Source: Oscillospiraceae bacterium
GTDB taxonomy: Bacteria > Bacillota > Clostridia > Oscillospirales > QAMX01
Assembly: GCA_015067715.1 (NCBI GenBank)
Contig: SVLY01000002.1
Span: 3,657-67,656 of the forward strand
DNA length: 64,000 nt
Reading direction: 5' to 3'
Part shown: positions 1 to 42,092 of the stretch, one piece after another
How positions within the stretch are numbered: position 1 is the stretch's first letter
Layout: the number at the start of each line of letters is the position of its first letter
Position numbers and translations under genes: made by a program
Notes under the pieces: generated by a model
Told to the model about the DNA's origin: nothing
The model's input: the letters and a program-made list of their open reading frames with translations, nothing else
Databases searched by the model: none

Positions 1-807
1 CCCAAGGGCGAATACTCCAAGGGCAAAAACGTCTGAGTTTACAGAGGCAAGGTCGGAGAACAGCCGGCTGAAATCGATCCGGGGGGCATAGGCCTTGGCC
101 CAAAGGCAAATGTCGCATACCTGGCGCAGGCCGAAGCCGGAGTGGATAAAGTGCTTGTAGGCGTGGAGAATGAGGTAGAGCAAGTGGGCTTCCGGCTCAA
201 GGGAGGTAACAGCGCGGCCGGAGCGGAGAATATATTCCCGGGTGGCGGGAGAGGCGAAAAAGCCATTCAGCTCACCCGTTGCAGAGCCATCGGAGGGGAA
301 GAGGCTTTTGTGGAGCTCGATTCGAAGGGGAGTTTTGCCTGATGCAAAGGTGACGACACTGGTGCCCTGGCCGCCGGAAACGAAAAAACCCTGGGAGAAC
401 AGAAAGCTCTCTGCGGCGTCAAAATCCTCCGGCGCGAACAGGTCTTCGTCTCCGCTGGGGCGAAGATATTCCTCCGGGAAAAGATCCCGGCAGAGAACGC
501 CTTTTACGGGGATAAGGGATATTCCTTTTTCTTTTGCCAGGGAGAGAACCTCAAGAACGTCTGCGGTGGCGCGGGTCTGGGTCATTATCTGCAGTGTGGC
601 ACGGCGCTTTGCCTCGGGGAAAAGCTCACGGGGGAAGGACTTGTGGGTGGCGCTGAAAACAAAGGGAAAGAGCTTTTGTTCAAGGCAGAGCCTTGTAAAG
701 GCGGAAAAATCCACGTCGGTAAGCTCCGGCGCGGGCGAGCCGGAAATGGATGAGCTTATGACGGACAGAAGTGCCCTTTGTTCGGGGGTGAGCTTTTTTT
801 CTGTCAT
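1..807 (-). CDS. nucleotidyltransferase-family protein (PF14907-like); C-terminal end runs off the window
   Basis: Absent from the ORF track because it has no in-window stop. A reverse-strand ATG at 807 follows a GGAAAGGAAG SD. My hand translation MTEKKLTPEQRALLSVISS...RPSGDEDLFAPEDFD...LHAYKHFIHSGFGLRQVCDI stays open to position 1. The 242..886 + ORF is its antisense shadow. Confidence 0.6.
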   Translation of the reverse strand, partial: MTEKKLTPEQRALLSVISSSISGSPAPELTDVDFSAFTRLCLEQKLFPFVFSATHKSFPRELFPEAKRRATLQIMTQTRATADVLEVLSLAKEKGISLIPVKGVLCRDLFPEEYLRPSGDEDLFAPEDFDAAESFLFSQGFFVSGGQGTSVVTFASGKTPLRIELHKSLFPSDGSATGELNGFFASPATREYILRSGRAVTSLEPEAHLLYLILHAYKHFIHSGFGLRQVCDICLWAKAYAPRIDFSRLFSDLASVNSDVFALGVFALG

Positions 808-979: not shown

Positions 980-1870
980 TTACTGGCGCTCGTCGCCGAA
1001 GAAGAACACTGCAACTGTTCCGGGGCCGGTGTGGGAGGCAATGATGGTGCCGATGTCGCAGATCCTGATCCTGCCCTCAAGTGCGGGAAAACGCTCTTCA
1101 ATGGCTAAGGCAGTCTCCCGGGCGATATCGGGGCAGTTGGAGTGGCTGATAAAGCACTTTCCGGCATAGTCGACGCCGTTCTCAGCGTGGGCGGTCATTT
1201 CGTCAACGGTGATGCGGATGGCGTTCTTTCTGCCCCTGGTCTTTGAATAGGCAATGATCTTTCCGGCGCGGTCAAGGTGCATTATGGGGCAGATGTTCAG
1301 AACTGTCGCCACAGCGGCAGTTGCGCCGGAAACGCGGCCGCTTCGCCGGAGAAATTTCATTTCGGTGGTGAAGAACTGGGAATGGACACGGGCGAGGTTT
1401 TCTCTGAGCCAGGTCTCGGTTTCTTCCATGGTACAGCCTCTATCCCGCATATCGGCGGCTTCGTCCACAAGCAGACCCAGACCGGAGGAGGCGCAGGTGG
1501 AATCCACAACGCTGATCTTTCTTTCGGGATATTTTTCCTTCAGCATGTCAAGTGCAACGTAGGCACTGCCCACGGAGCCGCTGAGACCGGAGCTGAAGGC
1601 AATGTGGAGCACCTCGTCCCCGTTGGCAGAGATCTTTTCAAGGTAGTCAAAATACTGCTGGGGATTAAGCTGGGTGGTGGTGGGCAGCTTGCCCTGTTGG
1701 AGCATTGAATAGAAATTGGGAAGAGCGTTTTCGTCGCGGCCCATATCGTCCACGTACTGAACACCGTCCACAGTGTAATTATAGAACAAAACCGGAAGTC
1801 CCCGCCCGGAAACGTAGGAGTAGGGCAGGTCGAGAGTGGATTCACAGGAAAGAATAAATTTTGGGGTCAT
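980..1870 (-). CDS. DegV family fatty-acid-binding protein
   Basis: ORF 980..1915 trimmed to MTPKFILSCESTLDLP (ATG at 1870). DegV-like layout: STLDLP N-terminus, SSGLSGS, HTGPGT near the C-terminus. Confidence 0.85.
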   Translation of the reverse strand: MTPKFILSCESTLDLPYSYVSGRGLPVLFYNYTVDGVQYVDDMGRDENALPNFYSMLQQGKLPTTTQLNPQQYFDYLEKISANGDEVLHIAFSSGLSGSVGSAYVALDMLKEKYPERKISVVDSTCASSGLGLLVDEAADMRDRGCTMEETETWLRENLARVHSQFFTTEMKFLRRSGRVSGATAAVATVLNICPIMHLDRAGKIIAYSKTRGRKNAIRITVDEMTAHAENGVDYAGKCFISHSNCPDIARETALAIEERFPALEGRIRICDIGTIIASHTGPGTVAVFFFGDERQ

Positions 1871-2002
1871 AATACGCTCCTCGTTATCATAAAGAGAGAA
1901 ACACCTTGAGAACAAGAGTGAAACTCATTATCATCTAATATGCTATATTATGTTATCACATATCCCGAATTAAATCAAATGGTAAATTTACCGATAAATG
2001 CT

Positions 2003-2059: not shown

Positions 2060-2713
2060 TTGGATTACGATCAGACCGTTGTAGTTGGAAAACTTCGCAG
2101 ATGGGAGCGTTATCTTGAGGTTTTCCGTCTTCCCAAGTGGAGCGAAATTCCCGATATCGGGCTATACATGGACCAGGTCATCCGCCTTATCACCCAGTAT
2201 CTGGACTATTACCCCCCGGAGCTCAAGGACGGGAAATATATCACGGCGACCACCGTTAACAACTACGTCCGCATGAAGATAATGCCCGAGCCCATAAAAA
2301 AGAAGTATTACCGAATTCATATCGGCTACCTTATTATGATATGCACCCTCAAGCACTCGTTAAGCATTGCCATGGTACAAAAGCTTATTCCTGCGGACAT
2401 TGGCGAGGAGGAGTTTTGCCGGATATACGAGGGCTATGCCGAGAGGCACCGTCTTTCGGCTCAGAAGTTTATCTCCCAGGTAAAAGAGATCGGCGCGCCC
2501 CTTTTCCATCCGGAAAACTCCGACGGAAGCGACCTTATGGAGGTGCACGATCTTATTTACGATTACGCCGTGCTTACCGGCTTTTCAAAGCTGCTCACGG
2601 AAAAGCTGGTGCTGTTAAAGAGCGTCACCATGGACCAGGTCGAGGCGGACACCTTTGCCTACAAATCGGACATTCGTCCCGCAGAGGCCTTTTCTGCGGA
2701 TGCTGATGAATAA
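2060..2713 (+). CDS. DUF1836 domain-containing protein
   Basis: ORF 2030..2713 contains IPDIGLYMDQVIRLITQYL...TTVNNYVRMKIMPEPIKKKYYRIHIGYLIMICTLK, typical of DUF1836 proteins that sit next to DegV genes. The TTG at 2030 overlaps the -10 box, so I prefer the in-frame TTG at 2060 after AAGGAAAGG. The start is uncertain. Confidence 0.65.
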   Translation: MDYDQTVVVGKLRRWERYLEVFRLPKWSEIPDIGLYMDQVIRLITQYLDYYPPELKDGKYITATTVNNYVRMKIMPEPIKKKYYRIHIGYLIMICTLKHSLSIAMVQKLIPADIGEEEFCRIYEGYAERHRLSAQKFISQVKEIGAPLFHPENSDGSDLMEVHDLIYDYAVLTGFSKLLTEKLVLLKSVTMDQVEADTFAYKSDIRPAEAFSADADE

Positions 2714-26678: not shown

Positions 26679-27350
26679 GTGCGCGTGCTTTTGGCAGAGG
26701 ACGAAAAAAGCCTTGCAAGGGCGCTGGTGAAGATTTTTGCGGCCAATAATTTTTCTGCGGACGCGGTATACGACGGGCGGGATGCCCTTGACTATATCGA
26801 ATCCGGAAGCTACGATGCCGCCGTGCTTGACGTTATGATGCCGGGAATGGACGGCTTTGAGGTCCTGCGTGAGCTTCGGAGAAGGGGAAATACCGTCCCG
26901 GTTCTCATGCTCACCGCCAGATCCGAGGTGGAGGATAAGGTCAACGGGCTTGACCTTGGGGCAAATTACTACCTCACAAAGCCCTTTGACGCCCGGGAGC
27001 TTGTTGCCGCTCTTCGTGCCATAACCCGGAAAGGCGGAGAAACGGATTCCACCCTGCGCCTTGGAAATACCCTGCTTGACAGATCAACCTACGAGCTTTC
27101 CGCCCCGGGGGGTAGCTTTCGCCTTGCAAACCGGGAATTTCAGATGATGGAGATGTTCATGAGCGCCCCGAAAAAGATTATTTCCGGCGAGCGGTTCATG
27201 GAGGTCATATGGGGCTTTGACAGCGACGCTGAGATGAGCGTGGTCTGGGCGTATATTTCCTATCTCCGGAAAAAGCTTTCCGCTTTGGGTTCCGATTTGA
27301 GCATAAAGGTCCACAGAAACGCGGGCTATTCTCTGGAGGAGCAGAAATGA
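26679..27350 (+). CDS. OmpR-family response regulator
   Basis: MRVLLAEDEKSL with receiver Asp in LDVMMPGMDG. C-terminal winged helix (YISYLRKKL...VHRNAGYSL). Confidence 0.9.
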   Translation: MRVLLAEDEKSLARALVKIFAANNFSADAVYDGRDALDYIESGSYDAAVLDVMMPGMDGFEVLRELRRRGNTVPVLMLTARSEVEDKVNGLDLGANYYLTKPFDARELVAALRAITRKGGETDSTLRLGNTLLDRSTYELSAPGGSFRLANREFQMMEMFMSAPKKIISGERFMEVIWGFDSDAEMSVVWAYISYLRKKLSALGSDLSIKVHRNAGYSLEEQK

Positions 27351-28573
27351 TAGACAGGCTGAAAAGACGTTTTTCTGTTCTTGCCGTTGGGGCGCTGACG
27401 GCGGCGGTGGCTCTGATGGTGCTGGGCATGAACCTTATAAGCTTTGGAGCGCTGGTGCGGGAGGCGGACGGAACGCTGGCGTTTATGTCGGAAAACCGGG
27501 GGCGTTTTCCCGAGCCGGACAGGGGTGCTCCGGGCAAGCTTCCCCCGGGAATGTCCCCGGAGGTGCCCTATGAGTCAAGGTATTTTTCCGTGACCGTCTC
27601 TCCGGACGGGGGAATAATGCAGCCCGAGACCAGCAAGATCGTCGCTGTGGACAGGGATACTGCCCTTGAATACGGAAAAAAAGCCCTTGACCGCCGGACG
27701 GAAAAGGGCTTCGTCGGTAAATTCAGATACCTGAAATATGCCGAGGGGGATAATACAAAGATACTGTTTCTGGATTGCAGAAGGTCGTTTGATGCCTTTA
27801 CCTCGTTTTTCTGTTCGGGGCTGGCCGTTTCCGCAGTTGGACTTGGGGTGCTGTACGTTGTAGTGCTGTTCTTTATCCGGCGCATACTTCGCCCTGTTGA
27901 GGAGAGCTACGAAAAACAGAAGAGGTTCATAACCGACGCCGGACACGAGATAAAAACTCCGCTTACGGTAATAAACGCAAACGCCGCACTGCTGGAGCTT
28001 GAGCTGGGTGAAAACGAATGCGTAAGCGATATTTGCACGCAGACAAAACGGCTGACCGCACTTACAAACGACCTTGTTGAGCTTTCCAGAATGGATGAGG
28101 GCGATGCCTCCCGGGAGATGAGCCTGCTTCCTCTCTCCGAGCTGACATCAGAGGCCGCAGAGCGATTCCGTGGGCCGGCAAAGGCCGCTCAAAGACAGCT
28201 TTTTGTAAGCGTGGAGGAGGGTATCTCCCTTCGGGGAAACGGAAAGAGCCTGATGCGGATGTTTGATATTCTCCTTGAAAACGCGCTGAAATATTCGCCG
28301 GAGAAGGGGAGCATCAGCCTTTCACTTGAAAAACGCGGCCGGACGGCGGAGCTGAGGGTCGAAAACGACACCGCACGCCCCGTTCCCGAAGAGTCGCTTT
28401 CCCGGGTGTTCGACAGGTTTTATCGGGCAGACGCCTCGCGAAATTCCGAAACCGGAGGCTTTGGCATCGGGCTTTCCGTTGCAAAAAGCGTTGCCGATGC
28501 CCACGGGGCAAAAATATTTGCTTTCTCTGATGGGGATCACCGCTTTGGGATCTCCGTTCGCTTCCAGATATGA
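27347..28573 (+). CDS. sensor histidine kinase
   Basis: Overlaps the response-regulator stop. Two TM helices flank a ~140-aa extracytoplasmic domain. H-box DAGHEIKTPLT. N and G boxes (LENALKYS, GGFGIGLSV). Confidence 0.9.
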   Translation: MIDRLKRRFSVLAVGALTAAVALMVLGMNLISFGALVREADGTLAFMSENRGRFPEPDRGAPGKLPPGMSPEVPYESRYFSVTVSPDGGIMQPETSKIVAVDRDTALEYGKKALDRRTEKGFVGKFRYLKYAEGDNTKILFLDCRRSFDAFTSFFCSGLAVSAVGLGVLYVVVLFFIRRILRPVEESYEKQKRFITDAGHEIKTPLTVINANAALLELELGENECVSDICTQTKRLTALTNDLVELSRMDEGDASREMSLLPLSELTSEAAERFRGPAKAAQRQLFVSVEEGISLRGNGKSLMRMFDILLENALKYSPEKGSISLSLEKRGRTAELRVENDTARPVPEESLSRVFDRFYRADASRNSETGGFGIGLSVAKSVADAHGAKIFAFSDGDHRFGISVRFQI

Positions 28574-32190: not shown

Positions 32191-33264
32191 ATGAAAAAGC
32201 TTAACGTTGCCATAATCGGCCAGGGCAGAAGCGGTCTGCTCATCCACGGAGAGTTTTTCCTCAGCCCGGCCAACGAAAAGTTCAACGTGAAATACGTTGT
32301 GGACTACGATGAATTCCGCCGGGAAAAGGCAGAGCGGCTTTTCCCCGGGTGCGAGACCTTTGATTGCTACACAAAGCTTTTCGGCAAAACGGATATCGAC
32401 CTTGTGGTCAACGCTTCGTTTTCCGAAATGCACTATCCCATCACCCTTGATCTTTTGAACCACGGCTTCAACGTGCTGGTGGAAAAGCCCATGGGCGCAA
32501 CGGAGGAGCAGTGTTTGCGGCTTATCAAAACCGCAAAGGAAAAGGAGCTCACCCTTGCGGTCTTCCAGCAGACCTTCTTTGCCCCCTATTACGTCCACGC
32601 CAAAAAGGTTGCGGACAGCGGCCTGCTTGGGGATATCCAGCAGATAAGCGTGCGGTTCAACGGCTTTTCCCGGAGATGGGACTGGCAGACTCTTCAGAAA
32701 AAGTGCGCCGGAGGTCTTTACAACACCGGCCCCCACCCCGTGGGCATTGCTCTCGGACTTCTGGACTTTGACCCGGAGGCGCGGCTTGTGTTCAGCAGGC
32801 TTGGCCGGGCGCTGACAAGCGGCGACGCGGACGATTACGCAAAGCTGATAATCTCCGCCCCGGGAAAGCCCGTTGCGGACGTTGAGGTGAGCTCCTGCGA
32901 CGCTTTCTCTCCCTACAACATCAAGATAACCGGCTCAAAGGGCTGTCTTAAATCCACCACCACCCATTGCGACCTGGTCTGGCTTGAGGATGGCGAAAAT
33001 CCCCCCAGACCCGCAACGGAGATACCCCTGAGAAACGAAGCGGGCGAGCCCATATACTGCTCGGAAAATCTTATCCGCCACACCGAAAGCATAGATTTCA
33101 CCGGTACGGCCTTTGACACCGGCTCGAAATGTATGTACGACCAGATTTACGACAAAATCACCTCCGGCAAGCCCATGACGGTCACGCCGGAGATGGCCGC
33201 AAGGGTCGTGGGCGTTATTGCCGCGGCTCACGCTCAGAACCCCTTGAGCGTTGAATTCCTGTGA
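32191..33264 (+). CDS. Gfo/Idh/MocA family oxidoreductase
   Basis: ORF 32161..33264 trimmed to MKKLNVAIIGQGRSG. LVEKPM motif. Confidence 0.8.
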   Translation: MKKLNVAIIGQGRSGLLIHGEFFLSPANEKFNVKYVVDYDEFRREKAERLFPGCETFDCYTKLFGKTDIDLVVNASFSEMHYPITLDLLNHGFNVLVEKPMGATEEQCLRLIKTAKEKELTLAVFQQTFFAPYYVHAKKVADSGLLGDIQQISVRFNGFSRRWDWQTLQKKCAGGLYNTGPHPVGIALGLLDFDPEARLVFSRLGRALTSGDADDYAKLIISAPGKPVADVEVSSCDAFSPYNIKITGSKGCLKSTTTHCDLVWLEDGENPPRPATEIPLRNEAGEPIYCSENLIRHTESIDFTGTAFDTGSKCMYDQIYDKITSGKPMTVTPEMAARVVGVIAAAHAQNPLSVEFL

Positions 33265-33292
33265 CCCCACCTCTTTTGAAAGGATATTTCAG

Positions 33293-34048
33293 ATGAAGTC
33301 ATACACCGTAGATAAGCTCAGCGTTAATATTTATTCCGACCGCCCCGAAATGGGCGCGGCCGCCGCGGCGGATATTGCCGCAAAGATCAGGGAGCTTCTT
33401 GCCCACCGGGACGAGATCAACATGATCTTTGCCGCCGCACCCTCTCAGAACGAGGTTCTGGCCTCCCTCGTGGCAGATGAGAGCATTGAGTGGGGGAGGA
33501 TAAACGCCTTCCACATGGACGAATACATCGGCCTTGCCGCCGATGCGCCCCAGAGATTCGGCAATTTCCTGGGAGAGCATATTTTTGACCTTGTGGGCTT
33601 TAAGTCCGTGAACTATATCAACAGCGAAAACTCCGTTGAGGCAGAGTGCGAAAGATATTCCGCCCTGTTAAAGGCCCATCCCATTTCCATCGTCGTTATG
33701 GGCATCGGCGAAAACGGACATATCGCCTTTAACGATCCTCCCGTTGCGGATTTTGGGGACAAGGCCCTTATCAAGCCCGTTAAGCTGGACGATATCTGCC
33801 GCAACCAGCAGGTGAACGACGGTTGCTTTGCCGAAATTCAGGACGTTCCGGAATATGCCCTCACCCTTACCGTACCCATGCTCATGTCCGGAGAGAGCCT
33901 GTTTTGCATCGTTCCCGCCAAAACCAAGGCCTGGGCCGTGAGAGAGACTCTCACAGGCTCCGTGGACGAGCATTGCCCGGCAACCGCACTTCGTACCCAC
34001 CCCGACGCAAAGCTCTACCTCGAGCCGGACAGCGCCTCGCTTTTGTAA
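33293..34048 (+). CDS. glucosamine-6-phosphate deaminase / 6-phosphogluconolactonase family protein
   Basis: ORF trimmed to MKSYTVDKLS. AAAPSQ, FHMDEYIGL and MGIGENGHIAFNDP motifs of the NagB/Pgl superfamily. Confidence 0.8.
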   Translation: MKSYTVDKLSVNIYSDRPEMGAAAAADIAAKIRELLAHRDEINMIFAAAPSQNEVLASLVADESIEWGRINAFHMDEYIGLAADAPQRFGNFLGEHIFDLVGFKSVNYINSENSVEAECERYSALLKAHPISIVVMGIGENGHIAFNDPPVADFGDKALIKPVKLDDICRNQQVNDGCFAEIQDVPEYALTLTVPMLMSGESLFCIVPAKTKAWAVRETLTGSVDEHCPATALRTHPDAKLYLEPDSASLL

Positions 34049-34056
34049 AGCAAACT

Positions 34057-34106
34057 AAAAAAACGCCCTTTCCCGGGATGTTGTACATGGGAAAGGGCGT
34101 TTTTGG
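34057..34106. terminator. bidirectional rho-independent terminator
   Basis: ACGCCCTTTCCC (34063..34074) pairs with GGGAAAGGGCGT (34089..34100), with an A-run before and a T-run after, between convergent operons. Confidence 0.8.
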
Positions 34107-34117
34107 TTTGACAGATC

Positions 34118-35779
34118 TTAGCGGTATATACCTTCGTAGATCGCAAGCTGGCGCTGGACTGAGGCGCGAAGGGCTTCGATGTCCGGGTAAGCGGGGTCTT
34201 CAAGGAAGGTGCGCATGTTGTAACCATAGGCCTCTGTAGACTCGGCGTCGAAGATCCACAGGGCGTTTTTATATCTCTTGGCCCACTGGCTAAGGGCGAG
34301 AGCCTCTTCGCGGCAGTCGGAAAAGTCGGCGTTGAAATTTTCGTAAAGGTCAAAGGTTGCCCCTGTCTGAAGCTCTGCGGCGATCTCCAGGGAGTTTTCA
34401 AGGTCGAATTCCGTGGGAATGCGGTAGAGGGGATTGGGGTAGATAACGGCGTCCATGGGGTTTGCAAGGTCTGTGCGGACGCCGTTTTCAACGGTATAGC
34501 TCACGCCCTCGAGCCCCATGCACAGCGCCTGACCCAGAGCTTTGTCCGTAAGCGCAGAAATTGCAAAGTCCAGAGCCAGCTCTTTGTTTTCAGAGCCGCT
34601 TGCCACGAAAAGCGAGCATTCCGGGCCGGTTACCGAGGGGATATTGCTCAGGGGTACAACAACTCTGGGGGCGTTATGCTTTTGAAGCTCAGCATCCTTT
34701 TCAAGCTGCTTCTGGGCGATCTTGGGGTCGGTGTAGGATTCAAAATAGTAGTACATGGCGGAATCTGCCGGGTCGTTCAGCGAAAGATAACCCTCTTCCA
34801 CGATCTCTGCGTAGCCCTGCATTATCTCTTCGAACATGGGCACCTCCCAAAGGGCGAGCACCTCGGGTCCGTTTTCGGTTTCGTGGACGTAGAGCGGAAG
34901 CATGTTTATCTGGGTATAGCTTTCGTCCAGCAAAACGGAATTTATAAGCCCTTCGACGCTCGCGGTCGCCGCCAGGGCCATTTTGTTGGAATAGAGATCA
35001 CCTATGTGTGCTATTTTGTCGAGGTATGCTCTGCCGGATGTGAACCTTGATAATCTATGCTCCGGAGCTATGTTCAGAAAAACGATGTCACGAACGCTTT
35101 GGGGCTCTTCTCCCGGGAATCCGTAGCCGTTTCCGCTGGCAAGATAGCCTGCCATGCTGCTGACCTCAAGGGTGGTGGCCGAAAAACCGTATATCCTGCC
35201 GTTGTCGGAGTTTACCTTCAAAAAGGCTTCCCCGTAAATATCGCTTACGGCTTTAAGCTGGTCTTCGGTTGCCATTGAGTCGACGGGAACGATAAGCCCG
35301 TCGTTAACGTAGTCCCAAAGGGTGTCGCCGGGAATGCCCGCAAGGCCGGAAATATTGGGTCCGGGGGCAATAATGTCGCATCTGCCGCCGGCATCAACGT
35401 ATTCTCTGACCTGCATTTCAAAGGTCTTTCCCTTGCTGAGTCCGTAGTTTCCAAAGCTGTAGACCATGAGGGAAAAACCGTAGCCGTTGTCAGAGAGCCA
35501 GGTGTTGAGGGCATCGTTAAGCTCAAGGGGATAGACGTTTCCGCTGTAGCTCTGGCGGATCAGCACCAAAACGGGCTTGCCGGGGTAAGCCTTTGAGATC
35601 GCATCGTAGAGTTCGTTTGTATCGCGCACGACGTTTCGCATGCTGTATTTTTGGTTCAGATCAAATTTTTGGGGATATTGAAACTGTGTTTTCAGGTCAG
35701 GGTTTGCCGGCGCCTTTCCGCAGGCGGCAATGGACAGGGCAAGCACCAGACATAAAATTATCAAAGCTGTCTTTTTCAC
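34118..35779 (-). CDS. large extracellular solute-binding-like lipoprotein (orphan, no adjacent permeases)
   Basis: GTG at 35779 after AGGAGG. Lipobox LALSIAACG. 553 aa. Size and composition resemble family-1 solute-binding lipoproteins, but the assignment is weak. Confidence 0.65.
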   Translation of the reverse strand: MKKTALIILCLVLALSIAACGKAPANPDLKTQFQYPQKFDLNQKYSMRNVVRDTNELYDAISKAYPGKPVLVLIRQSYSGNVYPLELNDALNTWLSDNGYGFSLMVYSFGNYGLSKGKTFEMQVREYVDAGGRCDIIAPGPNISGLAGIPGDTLWDYVNDGLIVPVDSMATEDQLKAVSDIYGEAFLKVNSDNGRIYGFSATTLEVSSMAGYLASGNGYGFPGEEPQSVRDIVFLNIAPEHRLSRFTSGRAYLDKIAHIGDLYSNKMALAATASVEGLINSVLLDESYTQINMLPLYVHETENGPEVLALWEVPMFEEIMQGYAEIVEEGYLSLNDPADSAMYYYFESYTDPKIAQKQLEKDAELQKHNAPRVVVPLSNIPSVTGPECSLFVASGSENKELALDFAISALTDKALGQALCMGLEGVSYTVENGVRTDLANPMDAVIYPNPLYRIPTEFDLENSLEIAAELQTGATFDLYENFNADFSDCREEALALSQWAKRYKNALWIFDAESTEAYGYNMRTFLEDPAYPDIEALRASVQRQLAIYEGIYR

Positions 35780-35804
35780 GTTGTGTCCTCCTTTTTTTGT
35801 GTGT

Positions 35805-35959
35805 TTATTGCAGAACGAAGGAATAAGTCTCGGGATCGTAGAACCAGGGCTCGTCTATTGTTCCGTCGAGAATATCCTCTTTGGTGACGTAGAGAAGTTT
35901 CTGGGGGTAGAAATAGGTCACGTCCCTGTAGTTTTCCTTTACGGTGTAACAGTCGGGCT
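35805..35959 (-). repeat. near-identical ~155-nt 3' coding segment shared by paralogs A, B and C (copy A)
   Basis: By-eye alignment with 38338..38492 and 39476..39630 shows only a handful of substitutions. Similarity collapses immediately upstream. Confidence 0.85.
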
Positions 35960-37157
35960 CAAGGGTTCCGTCCGGGAGTATAAGATGATAGGTGAATATC
36001 AGCCCCTTTTCTGTTTCGCTGAAGAGTGTCATGGCATAGCCGGGAATGTCTACAGTTATTCGCTCGGCGGAGTCCGTGTTAACCAATTCAAAGGACTCAA
36101 AGCCGGGGTCTATAGAATAGCGGACTCCGTTGTGGTGAAATTTTTGACTGTAAGATTCTGTTTCGATGGTTAACTCAGACGGGTCGATAAGCTCTTTGGT
36201 GCTTATCCGGCAATATGACGTTTTCCCACCTGCGTAGCAGCAAAAATAATCCCTCAGGGGGTATATATCAAATATTTCAGTCCCGATGGGGAGCTTATTC
36301 CGGGATATCAGCTCATCAAGTATCACGGCACAGTCGTATACTTCGGTTTCCCCGGTTTCGATGTCAAAAGTGTACGCAGTTGCAGATTCTTCGTAAGCAA
36401 AAGAAAACTTATCTTCTGTTGCATCGTTGATTATAAAGGAGTTACTGGGAATAGTGACAGGCCTGGCAGAAACCATCCCCCATTCCTTTTTTTCGAGGTC
36501 GTAACGTGCCACCCAGTACGAATAGCGGAATTCATCCTGATTCATGGATGTCAATTCATCGATGGTCAGATTGACGTCGGTTGCAAGAGCGAAAAGACTG
36601 AGGTATATTTGTGTTCCGTAAATAACGTAAGATGATGCTGTGGAGCTGAAGTGTTTATCGAATATTTCGCCGTCATAACCCAACAGCTCTGGAGTAAAAC
36701 TAACTGTTTCGTGCTTGATTCCGTCGAGTCCGTAGTAAACCGCTTCGAGCTGGCCGTTTTTGTTGTGGGCATCTCTTATTGAAAAGATGTTGTCTTTATA
36801 TATGCCTGTGATAAGCGACGGACAAAATCCTTCGTATACCGTTCCGAAACAATCTGTTGAAGAATGGTCACAGATTGCATTGGTGCACAATGGGATGAAT
36901 GACTTCAACTCTTCGTTGAACAGATGCCTCATGATCACCCTCGTTTTTTCTCCGCCGTATTCCTTGCCTTCAAGGTCGTTAATTGCCATTTCAAGGTATG
37001 CACCGCCTTTTACGGCCATACCGTTGTCAATGACGGGGATGCGAACTGTGGGAAAGTCGGTGAGAAAAATATCGTAGGCATATTCTTCGCCCCTTCCGCA
37101 GGCGGCAAGGGGGAGTATGCTGAGGAGGGCGAGGAGGAGAAATAGAATACGTTTCAA
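35805..37157 (-). CDS. lipoprotein paralog A of an uncharacterised family (Cys/His cluster, conserved C-terminus)
   Basis: AGGAGG plus 7 nt then TTG at 37157, by analogy with paralogs B and C. Lipobox ILPLAACG. LCTNAICDHSSTDCFG. C-terminal YTVKENYRDVTYFYPQKLLYVTKEDILDGTIDEPWFYDPETYSFVLQ. Confidence 0.75.
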   Translation of the reverse strand: MKRILFLLLALLSILPLAACGRGEEYAYDIFLTDFPTVRIPVIDNGMAVKGGAYLEMAINDLEGKEYGGEKTRVIMRHLFNEELKSFIPLCTNAICDHSSTDCFGTVYEGFCPSLITGIYKDNIFSIRDAHNKNGQLEAVYYGLDGIKHETVSFTPELLGYDGEIFDKHFSSTASSYVIYGTQIYLSLFALATDVNLTIDELTSMNQDEFRYSYWVARYDLEKKEWGMVSARPVTIPSNSFIINDATEDKFSFAYEESATAYTFDIETGETEVYDCAVILDELISRNKLPIGTEIFDIYPLRDYFCCYAGGKTSYCRISTKELIDPSELTIETESYSQKFHHNGVRYSIDPGFESFELVNTDSAERITVDIPGYAMTLFSETEKGLIFTYHLILPDGTLEPDCYTVKENYRDVTYFYPQKLLYVTKEDILDGTIDEPWFYDPETYSFVLQ

Positions 37158-37226
37158 ACTGTGGCCTCCTTTTTTGGGGAGATAGGGGAGCGGCATTGGT
37201 TAGCCACTCCCCTAAGATTACTGCTT

Positions 37227-37715
37227 TTACTCTGTTACGACCGGGGGAGTGTATGCGAGAGGAATGTTGCCGTCGTTGCTTCGAGCTTGGCTTGCATACT
37301 CTACTCCGTTATGTGTTACGGAGATTTTGTAGTAGTTTTCAACTCCAAGAAGAGCAACTGAATAGTCATCAAGATTTTTTGTGACATTGGCTATAGCTTC
37401 ATTGGGGTTGGAATCTGATGCTGTGAAAGTCATGGATCTGTAATTGTTGAGATTGCTCCAAGGAGCTACCCAACATTTCACAGAAACATAAGCGAATGCA
37501 GATTCGCATTCGTGAGTTACATCGGCGGTTGCGCTTGCGATTTGGGTGCTATTTCCATATACGCCACCTCCGTACTGACCGCTGAAGTCTGCGCTACAAC
37601 CGCAATTAGGACGGGAGAAATTCATGTGGCTTATGGGAGCGGCGCTTGCCGGGATGGAGAGGAGAGCGGTCATTGTTATTACGGCGACAAGGACCAGGGT
37701 GAGTGTTCTTTTCAT
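37227..37715 (-). CDS. small secreted protein, function unknown
   Basis: AAGGAGG then ATG at 37715. Signal peptide MKRTLTLVLVAVITMTALLSIPASA. 162 aa with 5 Cys. No family recognised. Confidence 0.65.
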   Translation of the reverse strand: MKRTLTLVLVAVITMTALLSIPASAAPISHMNFSRPNCGCSADFSGQYGGGVYGNSTQIASATADVTHECESAFAYVSVKCWVAPWSNLNNYRSMTFTASDSNPNEAIANVTKNLDDYSVALLGVENYYKISVTHNGVEYASQARSNDGNIPLAYTPPVVTE

Positions 37716-37915
37716 TGTTTGTCGTCCTCCTTAAGATGAGTATAAATAGGTTATAAGGGTGTGTGCTTCAAAACAGACACAAAAAAACAGCCGCATTACT
37801 CCTGTGTTTTTGTGGCGGCAACCGCGAATGGACGGTGTGCGCTTTCCCAAAAGCAGGAATTAATACGGCTGCCTTAAAAATGTCGGGTGTGTTTTGAAGG
37901 TCAGTCTGATTGGTC
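37716..37915 (-). promoter_or_regulatory. conserved structured 5' leader, copy 2 (rod-like hairpin, U-tract, flanking inverted repeats)
   Basis: About 185 nt are nearly identical to 40826..41016. In the minus-sense RNA, CUUCAAAACACAC pairs with GUGUCUGUUUUGAAG and CAGCCGUAUUAAUUCCUG pairs with CAGGAGUAAUGCGGCUG, followed by U7. Confidence 0.6.
37781..37871 (-). terminator. terminator-like long hairpin + U7 inside leader copy 2
   Basis: 17-bp stem between 37854..37871 and 37788..37804, with a GC-rich base (CAGCCG/CGGCUG). The A-run at 37781..37787 on the plus strand gives U7 in the transcript. It lies ~65 nt upstream of the start codon. Confidence 0.5.
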
Positions 37916-38156
37916 TGCAACATATGCCCGTATCAGTCCATGGCATATGAGGGGTTCTTAAGTTGGGTTGACTACTTCTGATTGGAGCCGTTCTTAAAGA
38001 GGAACGGGTTCTGACTCTCCTTAGAGCTCGAACGGCTGAAGACTCCAAGGGGAGGCGTTGATGTGGAGGATATGGAAAACCAGTTTGCACATATCTTGTT
38101 ACCTCCTGACAGATATGGATTTTAAATTTTCAGAGGAATATATTCCCTCTAAAAAT

Positions 38157-38185
38157 ATAATAACATAAACTGTTTAATGTGTCAA
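38157..38185 (-). promoter_or_regulatory. sigma-A type promoter (TTGACA-17-TATTAT) of the 37715..34118 operon
   Basis: On the reverse strand, TTGACA is at 38185..38180 and TATTAT at 38162..38157. The near-palindrome AGAGGAATATATTCCCTCT (38132..38150) follows immediately. Confidence 0.55.
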
Positions 38186-38337
38186 TAGGTGATTTTGAAA
38201 AATCCGCTGTATAAGAATAAAACTTAGAAATAATTACCGGGCGGGGAGTAAAACTGGGTGTGACCTGAGGCAAGTTGTCAGGGAAAATTGAGAGGGAGAA
38301 ATTGACTTCTTGTTTCGCTGTGGTATTATGAGGCTAT

Positions 38338-38492
38338 TTATTGCAGAACGAAGGAATAAGTCTCGGGGTCGTAGAACCAAGGCTCGTCTATTGTTCCGTC
38401 GAGAATATCCTCTTTGGTGACGTAGAGGAATTTCAGGGGGTAGAAATAGGTCACGTCCCTGTAGTTTTCCTTTACGGTGTAGCTGTCGGGCT
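38338..38492 (-). repeat. near-identical 3' coding segment (copy B)
   Basis: See 35805..35959. Confidence 0.85.
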
Positions 38493-39450
38493 CGAGTTTT
38501 CCGTCTTCTGAAATTGTTCGCCAATAAAAGATCATGCCCTTTTCGGTTTCAGAGCAAAAAGTCAGAGAGCGGTTTTCTGTGGGTACCGACTGTTGTTTAC
38601 CCGTGACGATATTGGTCAGTATGAGCTTTTCGGAAATGGGTTCGACCAGATACAGCTCTCCGTTTTGTTCGAAGCGGTTTATGTTTTGGGCAAGCGCAAG
38701 GTAGGGGGAGTCGATGCTGAGCAGATCATTCTCAGAAAAATCCGTGAAATGTTCGAAAGAAAGATAGGGTTCGGAATTCAATTGGGTCCAGTTTTTTTCT
38801 TCAAGATCGTAGCAGAGTATCCAGTGGGCATATTCGATTTCTCCGTTTTCGAGAAACAGTGAGTCTTCGTAGCCGGGGGCTACTGTTGATATTTCGAAAT
38901 AAAGCTTTGTTCCGAAGCTGAGGTAATCGTTGTTGAGCATAGACCCGTTTTTGAGGGATTCTCCGTTGGGCATTGTAAGCTCAGGGGTGTAATCCACCGT
39001 GTCTCGGATCATCCCGTCGAGATCGTAATATATAACTTCTACACGGTCCTTATCGTTAGGTGACTCTCTTACGTCGAAAATAAGATCCTTATAAACGCCG
39101 GTTATTGTGAGGGAGTAATTTCCGTGGTAGGCATTGCCGAAACAGTCTGCGTTGCCGTGAGCGCAGGACGGTTCCATGCACAGGGGCATGAGGGTTTTTG
39201 TTTCTTCGTTAAAGAGACATCGCATTGCAACCCAGCTTTCTTCGGAATTTCGTTCTTTTCCCTGAAGGTCTTGTATATGGGTGTTAAGAAATGCGCCTCC
39301 CTTTATCGGCATACTTCTGGATATAATTGGTACATACATTTTCGGGTATTCCGGTGGGATGTAATCGTAGGTGTATTCCTCCGTCTTCCCGCAGGCGGCG
39401 AGCGGGAGTAAGCTGAGAAGGGTGAGAAGAATAAGAAGAATGCGTTTCAC
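38338..39450 (-). CDS. lipoprotein paralog B
   Basis: AGGAGG plus 7 nt then GTG at 39450. MKRILLILLTLLSLLPLAACGKTEEYTYDYIPPEYP, LCMEPSCAHGNADCFG, and the same C-terminal ~47 aa as A and C. Confidence 0.75.
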   Translation of the reverse strand: MKRILLILLTLLSLLPLAACGKTEEYTYDYIPPEYPKMYVPIISRSMPIKGGAFLNTHIQDLQGKERNSEESWVAMRCLFNEETKTLMPLCMEPSCAHGNADCFGNAYHGNYSLTITGVYKDLIFDVRESPNDKDRVEVIYYDLDGMIRDTVDYTPELTMPNGESLKNGSMLNNDYLSFGTKLYFEISTVAPGYEDSLFLENGEIEYAHWILCYDLEEKNWTQLNSEPYLSFEHFTDFSENDLLSIDSPYLALAQNINRFEQNGELYLVEPISEKLILTNIVTGKQQSVPTENRSLTFCSETEKGMIFYWRTISEDGKLEPDSYTVKENYRDVTYFYPLKFLYVTKEDILDGTIDEPWFYDPETYSFVLQ

Positions 39451-39475
39451 GTTGTGTCCTCCTTTTTTTGTGTGT

Positions 39476-39630
39476 TTATTGCAGAACGAATGAATAAGTC
39501 TCGGGGTCGTAGAACCAGGGCTCGTCTATTGTTCCGTCGAGAATATCCTCTTTGGTGACGTAGAGGAATTTCCGGGGGTAGAAATAGGTCACGTCCCTGT
39601 AGTTTTCCTTTACGGTGTAGCAGTCGGGAC
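39476..39630 (-). repeat. near-identical 3' coding segment (copy C)
   Basis: See 35805..35959. The 25 nt downstream of the stop (39451..39475) are identical to 35780..35804. Confidence 0.85.
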
Positions 39631-40825
39631 CTATACTTCCGTCTTCAAGCAGATCTCTGTAGCTGAATATTATTCCGTTTTCGGTCTCGCTGAAAAATGA
39701 CATGATTATCCCGGGAGTTTCAACGTCTGTTCTTTCGTTGGTGTTACAGTTGGTAAAGGTGAACTGACCTGCCATTGATTCTGTTGTGTAAAGGCATTCG
39801 CTGTACGTGAATCTATTGGTTCCGCCAACGGTCAGATAACGTGCTTCAGACGGGTCAATAAACTCTTTTGTACTGATGCGGATATAATAAGTTTTGTCTC
39901 TCTGATAGCAGTCGAAGAAATCTCCCGTGGGATAAATACCGGCGATCATAGTTCCTGTTGGCAGCTCGCCTTTGGCGATCTTTTCGTCAAGAATTGCGGC
40001 ACAGTCATATTCCGTGACTTCTCCGGTGGATATATCCACTGTATATCCCACACCGTTGTTTTGAAGTGTAAGCATACTTTCGTTTGCATCTCTGAAATTC
40101 AAAAACTGGGCATCGGTGGAATGGGGGAAGGTGGCAATATAGCTCCATTCCCTGTTGTCAAGGTCATAACACACGACCCAATGGAAGTACTTAAGCTGTG
40201 ACTGGTCTAACAACACCCATTCGTTATCTCCGGTGTTCAGTGCAGATAGCTGTATATATACTTTTGATCCAATAACAGTGAATATTTGGGACATATATAC
40301 TGTGTTTTCCAAAGGGGAGCCGTCGGGGAAGAAGAGCGCCGGAGTGAATAGAACGGTATCCTTTATTGTGCCGTCGAGACCGTAGTAAACTGTCTCAAGC
40401 AAACCGTTTGCGTTAGTGTGCCCTTTTTGTTTATACGTCTCTTTAATAATAAACACACTGTCCTCGTAAATTCCGGAATAGGACGTATTTGAATGACCGT
40501 ATAAATCACCGAAGCATCCGACGGTATCGTGAGTGCAGTTCGGGTCTGTACACAAGGGGGCAATGGTTTTTGTATGTTCTGAAAATATGCTGACCATGGC
40601 CACATCAGACTGCTCTGAGTTTTTTTCCTTTCCGTCAAGTTCGTGTTTAGCTATATACAGAAAGGCGCCGCCTTTTATCTTTTTGTTTGCAAGACTTCCG
40701 AGACTCATTCTGATCTCGGGGTATTCCGGTGGGATGTAATCGTAGGTGTATTCCTCTGTCTTCCCGCAGGCGGCGAGCGGGAGTAAGCAGAGGAGGGCAA
40801 GAAGAATAAACAGAATGCGTTTCAC
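39476..40825 (-). CDS. lipoprotein paralog C
   Basis: AAGGAGG plus 7 nt then GTG at 40825. MKRILFILLALLCLLPLAACGKTEEYTYDYIPPEYP, LCTDPNCTHDTVGCFG, and the conserved C-terminus. Confidence 0.75.
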   Translation of the reverse strand: MKRILFILLALLCLLPLAACGKTEEYTYDYIPPEYPEIRMSLGSLANKKIKGGAFLYIAKHELDGKEKNSEQSDVAMVSIFSEHTKTIAPLCTDPNCTHDTVGCFGDLYGHSNTSYSGIYEDSVFIIKETYKQKGHTNANGLLETVYYGLDGTIKDTVLFTPALFFPDGSPLENTVYMSQIFTVIGSKVYIQLSALNTGDNEWVLLDQSQLKYFHWVVCYDLDNREWSYIATFPHSTDAQFLNFRDANESMLTLQNNGVGYTVDISTGEVTEYDCAAILDEKIAKGELPTGTMIAGIYPTGDFFDCYQRDKTYYIRISTKEFIDPSEARYLTVGGTNRFTYSECLYTTESMAGQFTFTNCNTNERTDVETPGIIMSFFSETENGIIFSYRDLLEDGSIGPDCYTVKENYRDVTYFYPRKFLYVTKEDILDGTIDEPWFYDPETYSFVLQ

Positions 40826-41016
40826 GTTGTGTCCTCCTTAAGATGAGTATAAATGGGGAATACGGGTGTGTGCTTCAAAACAAACACAAAAAACAGCCGC
40901 ATTACTCCTGTGTTTTGTGGCGGCAACCGCGAATGGACGGTGTGCGCTTTCCCAAAAGCAGGAATTAATACGGCTGCCTTAAAAATGTCGGGTGTGTTTT
41001 GAAGGTCAGTCTGATT
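40826..41016 (-). promoter_or_regulatory. conserved structured 5' leader, copy 1
   Basis: Over the ~150-nt core it matches 37716..37915 apart from one substitution and two 1-nt homopolymer indels. A short divergent block lies near the SD. Confidence 0.6.
40888..40976 (-). terminator. terminator-like long hairpin + U6 inside leader copy 1
   Basis: Stem between 40959..40976 and 40894..40910. The A-run at 40888..40893 on the plus strand gives the U-tract. Confidence 0.5.
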
Positions 41017-41084
41017 AAATTTCGTCATGCGCCCAATCAGAGTAATGGCACATGAGGGAGTATTTGGTTATTGTTCACAGGTAT

Positions 41085-41113
41085 ATGATAACACATAATA
41101 TTGAGTATGTCAA
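41085..41113 (-). promoter_or_regulatory. sigma-A type promoter (TTGACA-17-TATCAT) of the 40825..38338 operon
   Basis: On the reverse strand, TTGACA is at 41113..41108 and TATCAT at 41090..41085. Confidence 0.55.
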
Positions 41114-41196
41114 CAGCTTCGCTGTGGATCTGCAAAAATTTATTTTATTTTCAGGGGATTATCCGGATCTGAATTGGCGGACGGAAAATGCGGAGC

Positions 41197-41234
41197 AAAT
41201 TAAACCGCCCGAAGAGAAAAAACTCTCCGGGCGG
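41197..41234 (-). terminator. rho-independent terminator of folD
   Basis: CCGCCCGAAGAG (41205..41216) pairs with CTCTCCGGGCGG (41223..41234). In the minus sense it is followed by UUUAAUUU. Confidence 0.65.
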
Positions 41235-41240
41235 CGGGCG

Positions 41241-42092
41241 TTATTTTGCGTTTTTTGCGGCAAGCGCGGTATGGGCGGCGAGAATGGCGGTGGTGACGGA
41301 GCCGACACCTCCGGGAACGGGGGTGATGGCCGAAACGATGGGCTCGGCGGCGTCGAAATCAACGTCACCGCGAAGGCGGCCGGCGGCATCGTCCCAGTTT
41401 ATACCGACGTCAACGATGACCTGTCCCGGGGAAACGTGGTCTGCGCTTATCATGTTCATGCATCCGGCGGCGGCCACGACGACGTCCGCTTTTTTTGTCA
41501 CGGCGGCAATGTCCGGGGTGCGGGTGTGGCAAACGGTGACGGTGGCGTTGCGGGCAAGCAGAAGCATTGCGGCAGGCTTGCCAACGACGAGGCTTCTGCC
41601 AACCACGACGGCGCTCTTTCCGGTGCAGTCAACGCCGTAATGGTCCAGCACCCTTACCGCCGCCTCGGCGGTACAGGGGCAAAAGCCCTTTCCGGAGCCT
41701 GTGAACACGCCGGCAAGACTGCCCTCGGTGATGCCGTCAACGTCCTTTTCGGGGAGAAGAGCATCACGGACGGCCTTGAGATCAAGGTGGCGGGGCAGGG
41801 GGCTGAACACCAGAATACCGTGGACGGAGGGGTCGGAATTCAGCCTTTCAACGGCGGCCATAAGCTCCTCCTGGGTGGCGTCTGCGGGCAGAAGCTCCCG
41901 GCGGAAGGCTATGCCAACGGTCTCACAGCGCTTTGCGGCGCCACGCTCATAGGCGAGATCGTCGCTCCGCTCACCAACGCGGAGCACGGCAAGGGTTGGG
42001 GTCGTGCCTTTTTCCTTAAGCTGGGCAACCAGCGCAGAGGTCTCCTGGTCGATGGCGGCGGCAACCTCGGCGCCTTTCAGTAAAGTGGCCAT
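41241..42092 (-). CDS. folD: bifunctional methylenetetrahydrofolate dehydrogenase/methenyltetrahydrofolate cyclohydrolase
   Basis: MATLLKGAEVAAAI...PTLAVLRVGERSDDLAYERGAAKRCE...VHGILVFSPLP...GRSLVVGKP...TPVPGGVGSVT is a full-length FolD pattern. Confidence 0.9.
   Translation of the reverse strand: MATLLKGAEVAAAIDQETSALVAQLKEKGTTPTLAVLRVGERSDDLAYERGAAKRCETVGIAFRRELLPADATQEELMAAVERLNSDPSVHGILVFSPLPRHLDLKAVRDALLPEKDVDGITEGSLAGVFTGSGKGFCPCTAEAAVRVLDHYGVDCTGKSAVVVGRSLVVGKPAAMLLLARNATVTVCHTRTPDIAAVTKKADVVVAAAGCMNMISADHVSPGQVIVDVGINWDDAAGRLRGDVDFDAAEPIVSAITPVPGGVGSVTTAILAAHTALAAKNAK

Follow-up and report, generated by a model that had tools for sequence, protein, structure and literature searches.

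A candidate leader terminator inside a long RNA hairpin at the head of two lipoprotein operons of a rumen Oscillospiraceae lineage

Two neighbouring operons for surface lipoproteins in an Oscillospiraceae genome begin with nearly the same leader, in which a short inverted repeat brackets a terminator-like stem. Does this repeat mark an invertible DNA switch, or is it part of an RNA structure that acts in the transcript? The locus lies on contig SVLY01000002.1 (assembly GCA_015067715.1), which belongs to a rumen Ruminococcaceae/Oscillospiraceae metagenome-assembled genome (proteins MBE6937055-58, locus tags E7460_007xx). The window analyzed here is a 64,000-nt stretch of this contig (positions 3,657 to 67,656), and all positions below are counted within it. 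Both lipoprotein operons and their leaders are encoded on the minus strand. The initial annotation of this DNA had considered two mechanisms for the leaders: ligand- or protein-dependent antitermination, and site-specific inversion of the segment between the repeats, as known from the cwpV switch of Clostridioides difficile. Our analysis supports attenuation through the promoter position, the terminator design and the sense-strand pairing, and gives no support to cwpV-style inversion, with no flipped copy among the assembled sequences (0/26) and a repeat of chance-level quality. We consider it somewhat better than an even bet, at roughly 55%, that the element is an RNA-level leader terminator (attenuator) that works in the mRNA sense and controls both operons.

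The leaders of operon 1 (copy 1) and operon 2 (copy 2) are ~96% identical over ~190 nt, from AATCAGACTGACC through the Shine-Dalgarno sequence. The initial annotation had described inverted repeats flanking ~105 bp in both leaders, and they are indeed present with arms of 13 nt that are 92% complementary (one mismatch). The arms are 108 nt apart in copy 2 (37766-37778/37887-37899) and 106 nt apart in copy 1 (40873-40885/40992-41004). The GC-based 17-bp stem reported between them was found as well. In copy 2, CAGCCGUAUUAAUUCCUG (37871..37854) pairs with CAGGAGUAAUGCGGCUG (37804..37788). The stem carries one bulged A and two G-U pairs, and five of the six pairs at its base (CAGCCG/CGGCUG) are G-C. 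It is followed at a spacing of 0 nt by U7 in copy 2 and by U6 in copy 1. The end of the U-tract lies 66 nt upstream of the start codon in copy 2 (ATG at 37715) and 63 nt in copy 1 (GTG at 40825), in agreement with the ~65 nt given before. The parts of the 2 leaders are listed in the order of transcription.

37921..37949, minus strand: 5' hairpin of leader copy 2, CAUAUGCC...GGCAUAUG
37766..37899, minus strand: rod-like hairpin of copy 2, 134 nt, the main finding (fold energy and z-score given below)
37887..37899, minus strand: repeat arm of copy 2 on the RNA-5' side, 5' strand of the basal helix
37854..37871, minus strand: 5' arm of the terminator stem, copy 2
37805..37853, minus strand: apical domain of copy 2, in which UUUU/AAAA, GGG/CCC, GCA/UGC and ACCGU/GCGGU continue the rod up to the loop CCAUUC
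37788..37804, minus strand: 3' arm of the terminator stem, copy 2
37781..37787, minus strand: U7 tract, copy 2
37766..37780, minus strand: repeat arm of copy 2 on the RNA-3' side
37716..37765, minus strand: linker and Shine-Dalgarno sequence GGAGG (37726..37730) of copy 2, without a promoter-like site
41026..41054, minus strand: 5' hairpin of leader copy 1, CAUGUGCC...GGCGCAUG
40873..41004, minus strand: rod-like hairpin of copy 1, 132 nt from the 5' to the 3' repeat arm (covariance-model score 180 bits)
40992..41004, minus strand: repeat arm of copy 1 on the RNA-5' side, CUUCAAAACACAC, 5' strand of the basal helix
40959..40976, minus strand: 5' arm of the terminator stem, copy 1
40894..40910, minus strand: 3' arm of the terminator stem, copy 1
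40888..40893, minus strand: U6 tract, copy 1
40873..40887, minus strand: repeat arm of copy 1 on the RNA-3' side, GUGUUUGUUUUGAAG, transcribed on read-through only
40833..40837, minus strand: Shine-Dalgarno sequence GGAGG of operon 1

Taken by itself, the inverted repeat does not exceed chance. The 64-kb window contains 12 clusters of 13-nt repeats with no more than one mismatch and a gap of 50-300 nt, and ~10 are expected (1.6e7 position pairs x 6e-7). For the repeat core together with its flank, the window has exactly two occurrences (0.01 expected). The composite hairpin, by contrast, is far beyond chance. A single unbranched hairpin nests the repeat arms (10 bp), a 5-bp helix GACAU/GUGUC, the AAGG/UUUU pairing, the 17-bp stem and the apical helices, and one continuous hairpin of this kind is predicted in copy 1, in copy 2 and in the alignment consensus. 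In the sense strand, the 134-nt element of copy 2 folds at -57.4 kcal/mol (z = -7.67), and none of 200 shuffled sequences was equally stable; the antisense strand reaches -44.8 kcal/mol (z = -3.54). The corresponding values for the rod of copy 1 are -55.3 and -43.6 kcal/mol. The sense fold is ~12 kcal/mol stronger because many G-U pairs of the mRNA sense become C-A on the other strand. The "inverted repeat" is most likely the basal RNA helix of this hairpin, not a recombination site.

We recovered related leaders by exact-protein look-ups, which led to many independent assemblies of the same lineage and yielded 10 distinct leader variants from related metagenome assemblies. In an alignment of 9 variants, the consensus structure has standard pairs in all 585 of its pair cells, a figure to be read with the caveat that this structure was derived from the same sequences. 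Pairing is kept in each of the 7 variable paired columns: in one, within the 5' hairpin, both partners have changed between G-C and A-U, and in the other six a single partner has changed, so that a G-U pair is gained or lost; in the tenth variant (L039), a U-G pair has become U-A. The 5' hairpins of copy 1 and copy 2 themselves differ by one compensatory G-C/A-U pair and one U-G/U-A pair. Within the rod, 4 of 34 unpaired columns vary, compared with 5 of 108 paired columns, a ratio of ~2.5. Positions in the apical loop differ between strains, and the linker between the U-tract and the Shine-Dalgarno sequence is the most strain-variable part of the leader. The substitutions and the strand asymmetry point to selection on the sense-strand RNA fold, including the helices formed by the repeat arms. 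Moreover, the leader is 96-100% preserved even where the first downstream genes of the strains share only 47% identity.

The only insertions or deletions in the element are changes in homopolymer length, A5/A4 and U7/U6 (37805..37810/37781..37787 in copy 2; 40911..40914/40888..40893 in copy 1). They fall at alignment columns 160 and 184. In 7 of the 9 variants, A5 goes together with U7 and A4 with U6, so that the register of an alternative A-U hairpin, CACAAAAACACAG...CUGUUUUUUUGUG, is kept. The coupling may be mere linkage, or the length of the U-tract may tune termination. We also noticed that CACACC occurs three times in each leader (37882..37891, 37832..37837 and 37752..37762, with equivalents in copy 1). 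ACACACCC stands directly 3' of each repeat core (CUUCAAAAC followed by ACACCC, and GUUUUGAAG followed by CACACACCC), and two of the three CACACC occurrences are single-stranded at the base of the rod. These repeats may be a protein-binding motif or an effect of composition; their significance is marginal and was estimated post hoc.

The element is placed between a strong promoter and the Shine-Dalgarno sequence in both operons, and operon 2 ends in a canonical terminator with which it can be compared.

41085..41113, minus strand: promoter of operon 1, TTGACA-17-TATCAT with a TG extension (extended -10), 11/12 matches to the sigma-70 consensus
38157..38185, minus strand: promoter of operon 2, TTGACA-17-TATTAT with a TG extension (extended -10), 11/12 matches to the sigma-70 consensus
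34059..34104, minus strand: end of operon 2, canonical intrinsic terminator, GCCCUUUCCC...GGGAAAGGGC followed by U7

No promoter-like site (at least 9/12 matches) was found between the U-tract and the Shine-Dalgarno sequence in either leader. Without an internal promoter, expression of both operons needs passage through the hairpin and U-tract. The 3' terminator of operon 2 consists of a hairpin and U7, which indicates that this combination is a genuine stop signal in this organism, and the stem base and U-tract of the leader share the same design.

These observations suggest the following course of events. Transcription from the strong sigma-70-type promoter would produce a leader of ~250 nt in copy 1 and ~430 nt in copy 2. 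The small 5' hairpin would fold first, and the rod would then zip from the apical loop as its 3' strand emerges. Closure of the 17-bp stem against U6 or U7 would create an intrinsic terminator, and most transcripts would stop there. The downstream repeat arm has not yet been made when the stem closes, so on this kinetic argument the configuration of hairpin and U-tract should necessarily form. The lipoprotein genes would be expressed from read-through transcripts only. In such RNA, the sequence 3' of the U-tract would pair with the sequence 5' of the stem, and the rod would grow to a near-continuous duplex of ~54 bp, a plausible stabilizer or substrate of a double-strand-specific ribonuclease (RNase). 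We infer that transcripts actually terminate at the U-tract, and that a factor acting in trans probably modulates read-through, most likely a protein that binds RNA or mediates processive antitermination. Such a factor is favored over ligand-driven refolding of the leader, as prefix folds and constrained folds revealed no antiterminator helix that competes with the terminator. Folds in which either stem arm is blocked are more than 20 kcal/mol worse than the terminator fold, and the prefix folds likewise offer weak local alternatives only. Alternatively, termination may simply be partial.

Several points weigh against an attenuator. The missing antiterminator helix leaves a switch without a visible mechanism, and no candidate regulator gene was seen adjoining the operons. 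The 17-bp stem closes a structured domain of 49 nt. It thereby fails the classical loop rule of terminators, 3-10 nt in the Lesnik rules (PMC2784873), and a consensus terminator scanner with a loop setting of 3-8 nt does not call the leader element. The covariation events are few and are mostly sense-strand C to U changes, which a mutational bias could imitate. Rfam 15 gave no leader match, either at the gathering threshold over the whole window or at E <= 10 for 37600..41300. Finally, the element is restricted to one narrow lineage. A metagenome scan with an interior 21-mer returned two unrelated chance matches only, and a protein-based locus search of GTDB genomes gave no match. A repeat-gap-repeat scan of one genome per GTDB species produced a single chance match, in a Lachnospiraceae coding region, and the same scan of viral contigs gave none. 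With filters off, the covariance model detected only the two known copies and their antisense images (~20 bits) in the window and the distant relatives L010 and L011. The leaders of homologous lipoprotein loci at 33-43% identity are unrelated to the element.

Other known kinds of attenuation were considered and set aside. Leader-peptide attenuation was rejected, as the small open reading frames (ORFs) that overlap the element differ between the copies, are frame-shifted by the homopolymer indels and are not conserved. Antisense-RNA attenuation of the pT181/pIP501 type is unsupported, with no promoter-like site antisense to the hairpin. Inspection revealed no convincing ANTAR, RAT, TRAP, HutP or CsrA motif.

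Among the other explanations, the one that survives best, though we hold it to be unlikely, is a structural hairpin of the 5' untranslated region (5'-UTR) with little or no termination. The ~54-bp rod would then be an mRNA stabilizer or an RNase III-type processing site, and the U-run merely part of an internal loop formed by the AAGG/UUUU pairing. In the consensus fold, AAGG does pair with a portion of the U-tract, and the helix runs on to the repeat arms. Although the basal helix requires read-through RNA to form, it is conserved, the one change there being G-C to G-U. The missing antiterminator alternative and a loop far bigger than in canonical terminators fit this explanation too. On the other side, the geometry of stem base and U7 matches the organism's genuine terminator exactly. 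Moreover, the partner strand of the basal helix is still unmade while RNA polymerase is on the U-tract, so a hairpin followed by U7 necessarily exists at that moment.

Considerably less probable is that the unit from promoter to U-tract is a gene of its own, a small RNA of ~190 nt in copy 1 or the mRNA of a small protein in copy 2, with the operons transcribed by incidental read-through. A strong promoter with a terminator behind it is how a small RNA gene is laid out, and copy 2 differs from copy 1 by an insertion that offers a coding frame.

37965..38145, minus strand: copy-2-specific insertion of ~180 nt between the promoter and the shared part of the leader

The insertion contains AGGAGG-N9-ATG and an ORF of 23 codons (38092..38021, MCKLVFHILHINASPWSLQPFEL), as well as a hairpin near the predicted transcript start (AGAGGGAAUAUAUUCCUCU). 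The ORF may encode a small protein or a leader peptide; it is kept in loci L002 and L008, where divergence is too low to judge coding. Against a separate gene, this ORF is missing from copy 1, conservation does not stop at the terminator but includes the repeat arm and reaches the Shine-Dalgarno sequence, the operons are without a promoter of their own, and the element always heads lipoprotein genes.

Inversion of the cwpV type gains no positive support here and is, in our estimation, slightly less probable still. It would involve an unlinked tyrosine or serine recombinase that inverts the repeat-bounded terminator cassette, with the flipped form being ON and occurring at low frequency. The terminator would lie wholly inside the flipped segment, and both copies would be OFF in every assembly examined. 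Invertible sites typically have imperfect inverted repeats of 10-20 nt, and their recombinases are possibly unlinked (PMC5903667); the 13-nt repeats with one mismatch, located between promoter and ORF, are within this range. The genes that would be switched encode surface lipoproteins and lie in a hypervariable island, a context typical of phase variation, and cwpV provides a precedent (PMC2784873). The initial annotation had further predicted that inversion would remove the terminator. This holds in silico, where flipping costs the RNA its U-tract and 12.6 kcal/mol of fold energy (-57.4 to -44.8 kcal/mol) and leaves its hairpin followed by CCUUAAAAAUG instead of U7.

We compared each recovered copy with the forward reference and with an in-silico flipped reference, the junctions of which read GACCTTCAAAACA[G/A]ACACAAAAAA... 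and ...CCTTAAAAATGTCGGGTGTGTTTTGAAGCAC. None of the 26 copies was flipped (20 full copies and 6 partial ones covering the right-hand junction, from 17 independent assemblies and the window). All are in the terminator-forming orientation, as had been stated for the 2 window copies. These counts are made at the level of assemblies and record the majority orientation only, and a minority such as the ~5% of cwpV that is ON in culture (PMC2784873) would be missed. Since several to many of the assemblies have a coverage of ~2-3x and thus sample few genomes each, a frequently flipping switch should have appeared. Contig breaks within the leader were considered as a sign of inversion and dismissed. 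They occur where the direct-repeat copies diverge or inside the shared repeat, all fragments are forward, and the repeat itself suffices to explain the breaks.

Other evidence also disfavors inversion. In 64 kb, chance alone should produce ~10 inverted repeats as good as this one. Further RNA helices follow on directly from the repeat arms, and the complete hairpin is sense-strand specific. In cwpV, the terminator spans the boundary of the left repeat with the interior (PMC2784873), whereas the terminator here is internal to the segment, with both stem arms at 37871..37788. No recombinase gene had been seen in the window before, and this is supported by the absence of Phage_integrase, Resolvase and Recombinase domains among the Pfam matches of its large ORFs, several of which had no match of any kind. 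Further copies of the inverted repeat were found neither in one genome per GTDB species nor in viral contigs.

A dispersed palindromic repeat (a miniature inverted-repeat transposable element, ERIC or Correia-like) that sits in the two leaders by chance and without dedicated function would account for a ~134-bp imperfect palindrome with terminal inverted repeats in two copies 3.1 kb apart, but is highly improbable, since the copies remain homologous well outside the repeat arms, out to the 5' hairpin and promoter in one direction and to the Shine-Dalgarno sequence in the other, there is no target-site duplication, only 2 copies were found in the 64 kb (covariance model, filters off) and none in GTDB representatives or viral contigs, and the substitutions are sense-strand specific and preserve pairing. 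An integron attC-like site was likewise rejected: the cores CTTCAAAAC and GTTTTGAAG misfit RYYYAAC/GTTRRRY by inspection, no integrase was found, and the cassette breakpoints lie in conserved gene ends rather than at the hairpin.

The genes downstream of the candidate attenuators are as follows.

39476..40825, minus strand: operon 1 gene 1, lipoprotein of 449 aa with a predicted beta-propeller fold, start GTG at 40825
38338..39450, minus strand: operon 1 gene 2, paralogous lipoprotein of 370 aa
34118..37715, minus strand: operon 2 as a whole, three genes
37227..37715, minus strand: operon 2 gene 1, secreted protein of 162 aa, start ATG at 37715
35805..37196, minus strand: operon 2 gene 2, paralogous lipoprotein of 450/463 aa
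34118..35779, minus strand: operon 2 gene 3, lipoprotein of 553 aa

The beta-propeller of the 449-aa protein is predicted with a predicted local distance difference test score (pLDDT) of 80. No Pfam, NCBIfam or PADLOC family matched the downstream lipoproteins, for which only a generic beta-propeller fold is predicted. The family is tiny, with 10 clusters among 5.8 billion proteins. The three paralogous lipoproteins (39476..40825, 38338..39450 and 35805..37196, minus strand) have a near-identical signal peptide and N-terminus and divergent cores, and their last ~45 residues are identical (YTVKENYRDVTYFYP.K.LYVTKEDILDGTIDEPWFYDPETYSFVLQ). A plus-strand promoter-like site with 10/12 matches and a TG extension (38302..38329) is directed, antisense, into the 3' end of the 370-aa gene. 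Elsewhere in the window, a Gut-1 RNA (RF01706; 28624..28700, plus strand; 54.9 bits, gathering score 50) lies just 3' of a two-component system (26679..28573).

The lipoprotein genes form an island (34226..41208) between folD (41241..42092) and nagB (33251..34048) that is hypervariable, while the flanks are ~98% identical between strains. Variant loci include L008, L024, L025, L001 and L034-L037. The first gene after leader 1 encodes either 449 aa, or 446 aa (47% identical to the 449-aa protein), or 162/167 aa. The 370-aa cassette follows the 449-aa gene in the window and a 463-aa gene in L008, L015 and L016. In L034-L037 (four loci, seven contigs), 41208..34226 is deleted and the last ~108 nt of the 553-aa gene are left. 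The breakpoints fall in the conserved 5' and 3' gene ends of the paralogues and in the two direct-repeat leaders. In this variable surface-lipoprotein island, the leader seems to serve as a conserved expression head. In the more distant locus L010 (lipoprotein 43% identical), each gene of the cluster stands behind a repeated leader segment (1..117, 1447..1876 and 2366..2465). These leaders, e.g., GGTTACCGCCGGAGTAGGCTCT... and GGGAGGGGAAAATCCTCTCC...CAAACAATCCCTAACATGGTCTAACACACAACAC, are unrelated in sequence to the element studied here, and repeated leaders may be a general feature of such islands.

If the attenuator is real, it adds one more lineage-specific leader terminator, placed inside a long 5'-UTR hairpin, and its interest is local. 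It heads uncharacterized surface beta-propeller lipoproteins that are shuffled, swapped or deleted between close rumen strains. If the segment did flip, the rare terminator-inversion logic of cwpV would extend beyond Clostridioides, and two beta-propeller lipoprotein operons would undergo coordinated or independent ON/OFF phase variation on top of the shuffling and deletion of island cassettes. As a general lesson, when the arms of an inverted repeat are found on either side of a hairpin, they usually just form the base of a longer RNA hairpin, and G-U pairs together with wobble-preserving substitutions tell which strand and which molecule is under selection.

How does the element compare with known systems? 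Intergenic palindromes of the ERIC and Correia type form long RNA hairpins in transcripts and occur in tens to hundreds of dispersed copies with defined ends. The element resembles them as a ~130-nt imperfect palindrome that is co-transcribed with its neighbouring genes, behaves differently on the two strands and could plausibly be cut by double-strand RNases. It differs in having two copies in 64 kb, in homology that extends beyond the ends, and in the same leader context of both copies.

The cwpV switch of C. difficile (Cdi1; Emerson et al. 2009, PMC2784873) likewise has imperfect inverted repeats between a fixed promoter and a surface-protein ORF, an intrinsic terminator in one orientation only (in silico in our case) and no adjoining recombinase gene. 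The right repeat arm also lies at a similar distance from the start codon, 57 nt in cwpV and 50 nt here. However, the cwpV repeats are 21 bp long and 195 bp apart, whereas those studied here measure 13 nt and are 106-108 nt apart. The 9-bp terminator stem of cwpV is located at the junction of left repeat and interior; here, an internal stem of 17 bp is flanked by repeat arms that pair with each other in the RNA. In cwpV, both orientations were detected by polymerase chain reaction and the recombinase RecV was identified; here, 0/26 copies are flipped and no recombinase was found in the window.

Also close in layout are the leader-terminator attenuators of Firmicutes that are relieved by trans-acting factors, such as the BglG/SacY-RAT, ANTAR and LoaP systems. 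The element departs from them in that inspection reveals no RAT-like hairpin, no dual-hexaloop ANTAR substrate and no known binding motif, and in that it has no adjoining regulator gene, no Rfam match and a 49-nt domain in place of a small loop. It agrees with them in its overall arrangement, in which a promoter, with no other promoter for the operon, is followed by a long structured leader, an intrinsic terminator and the Shine-Dalgarno sequence.

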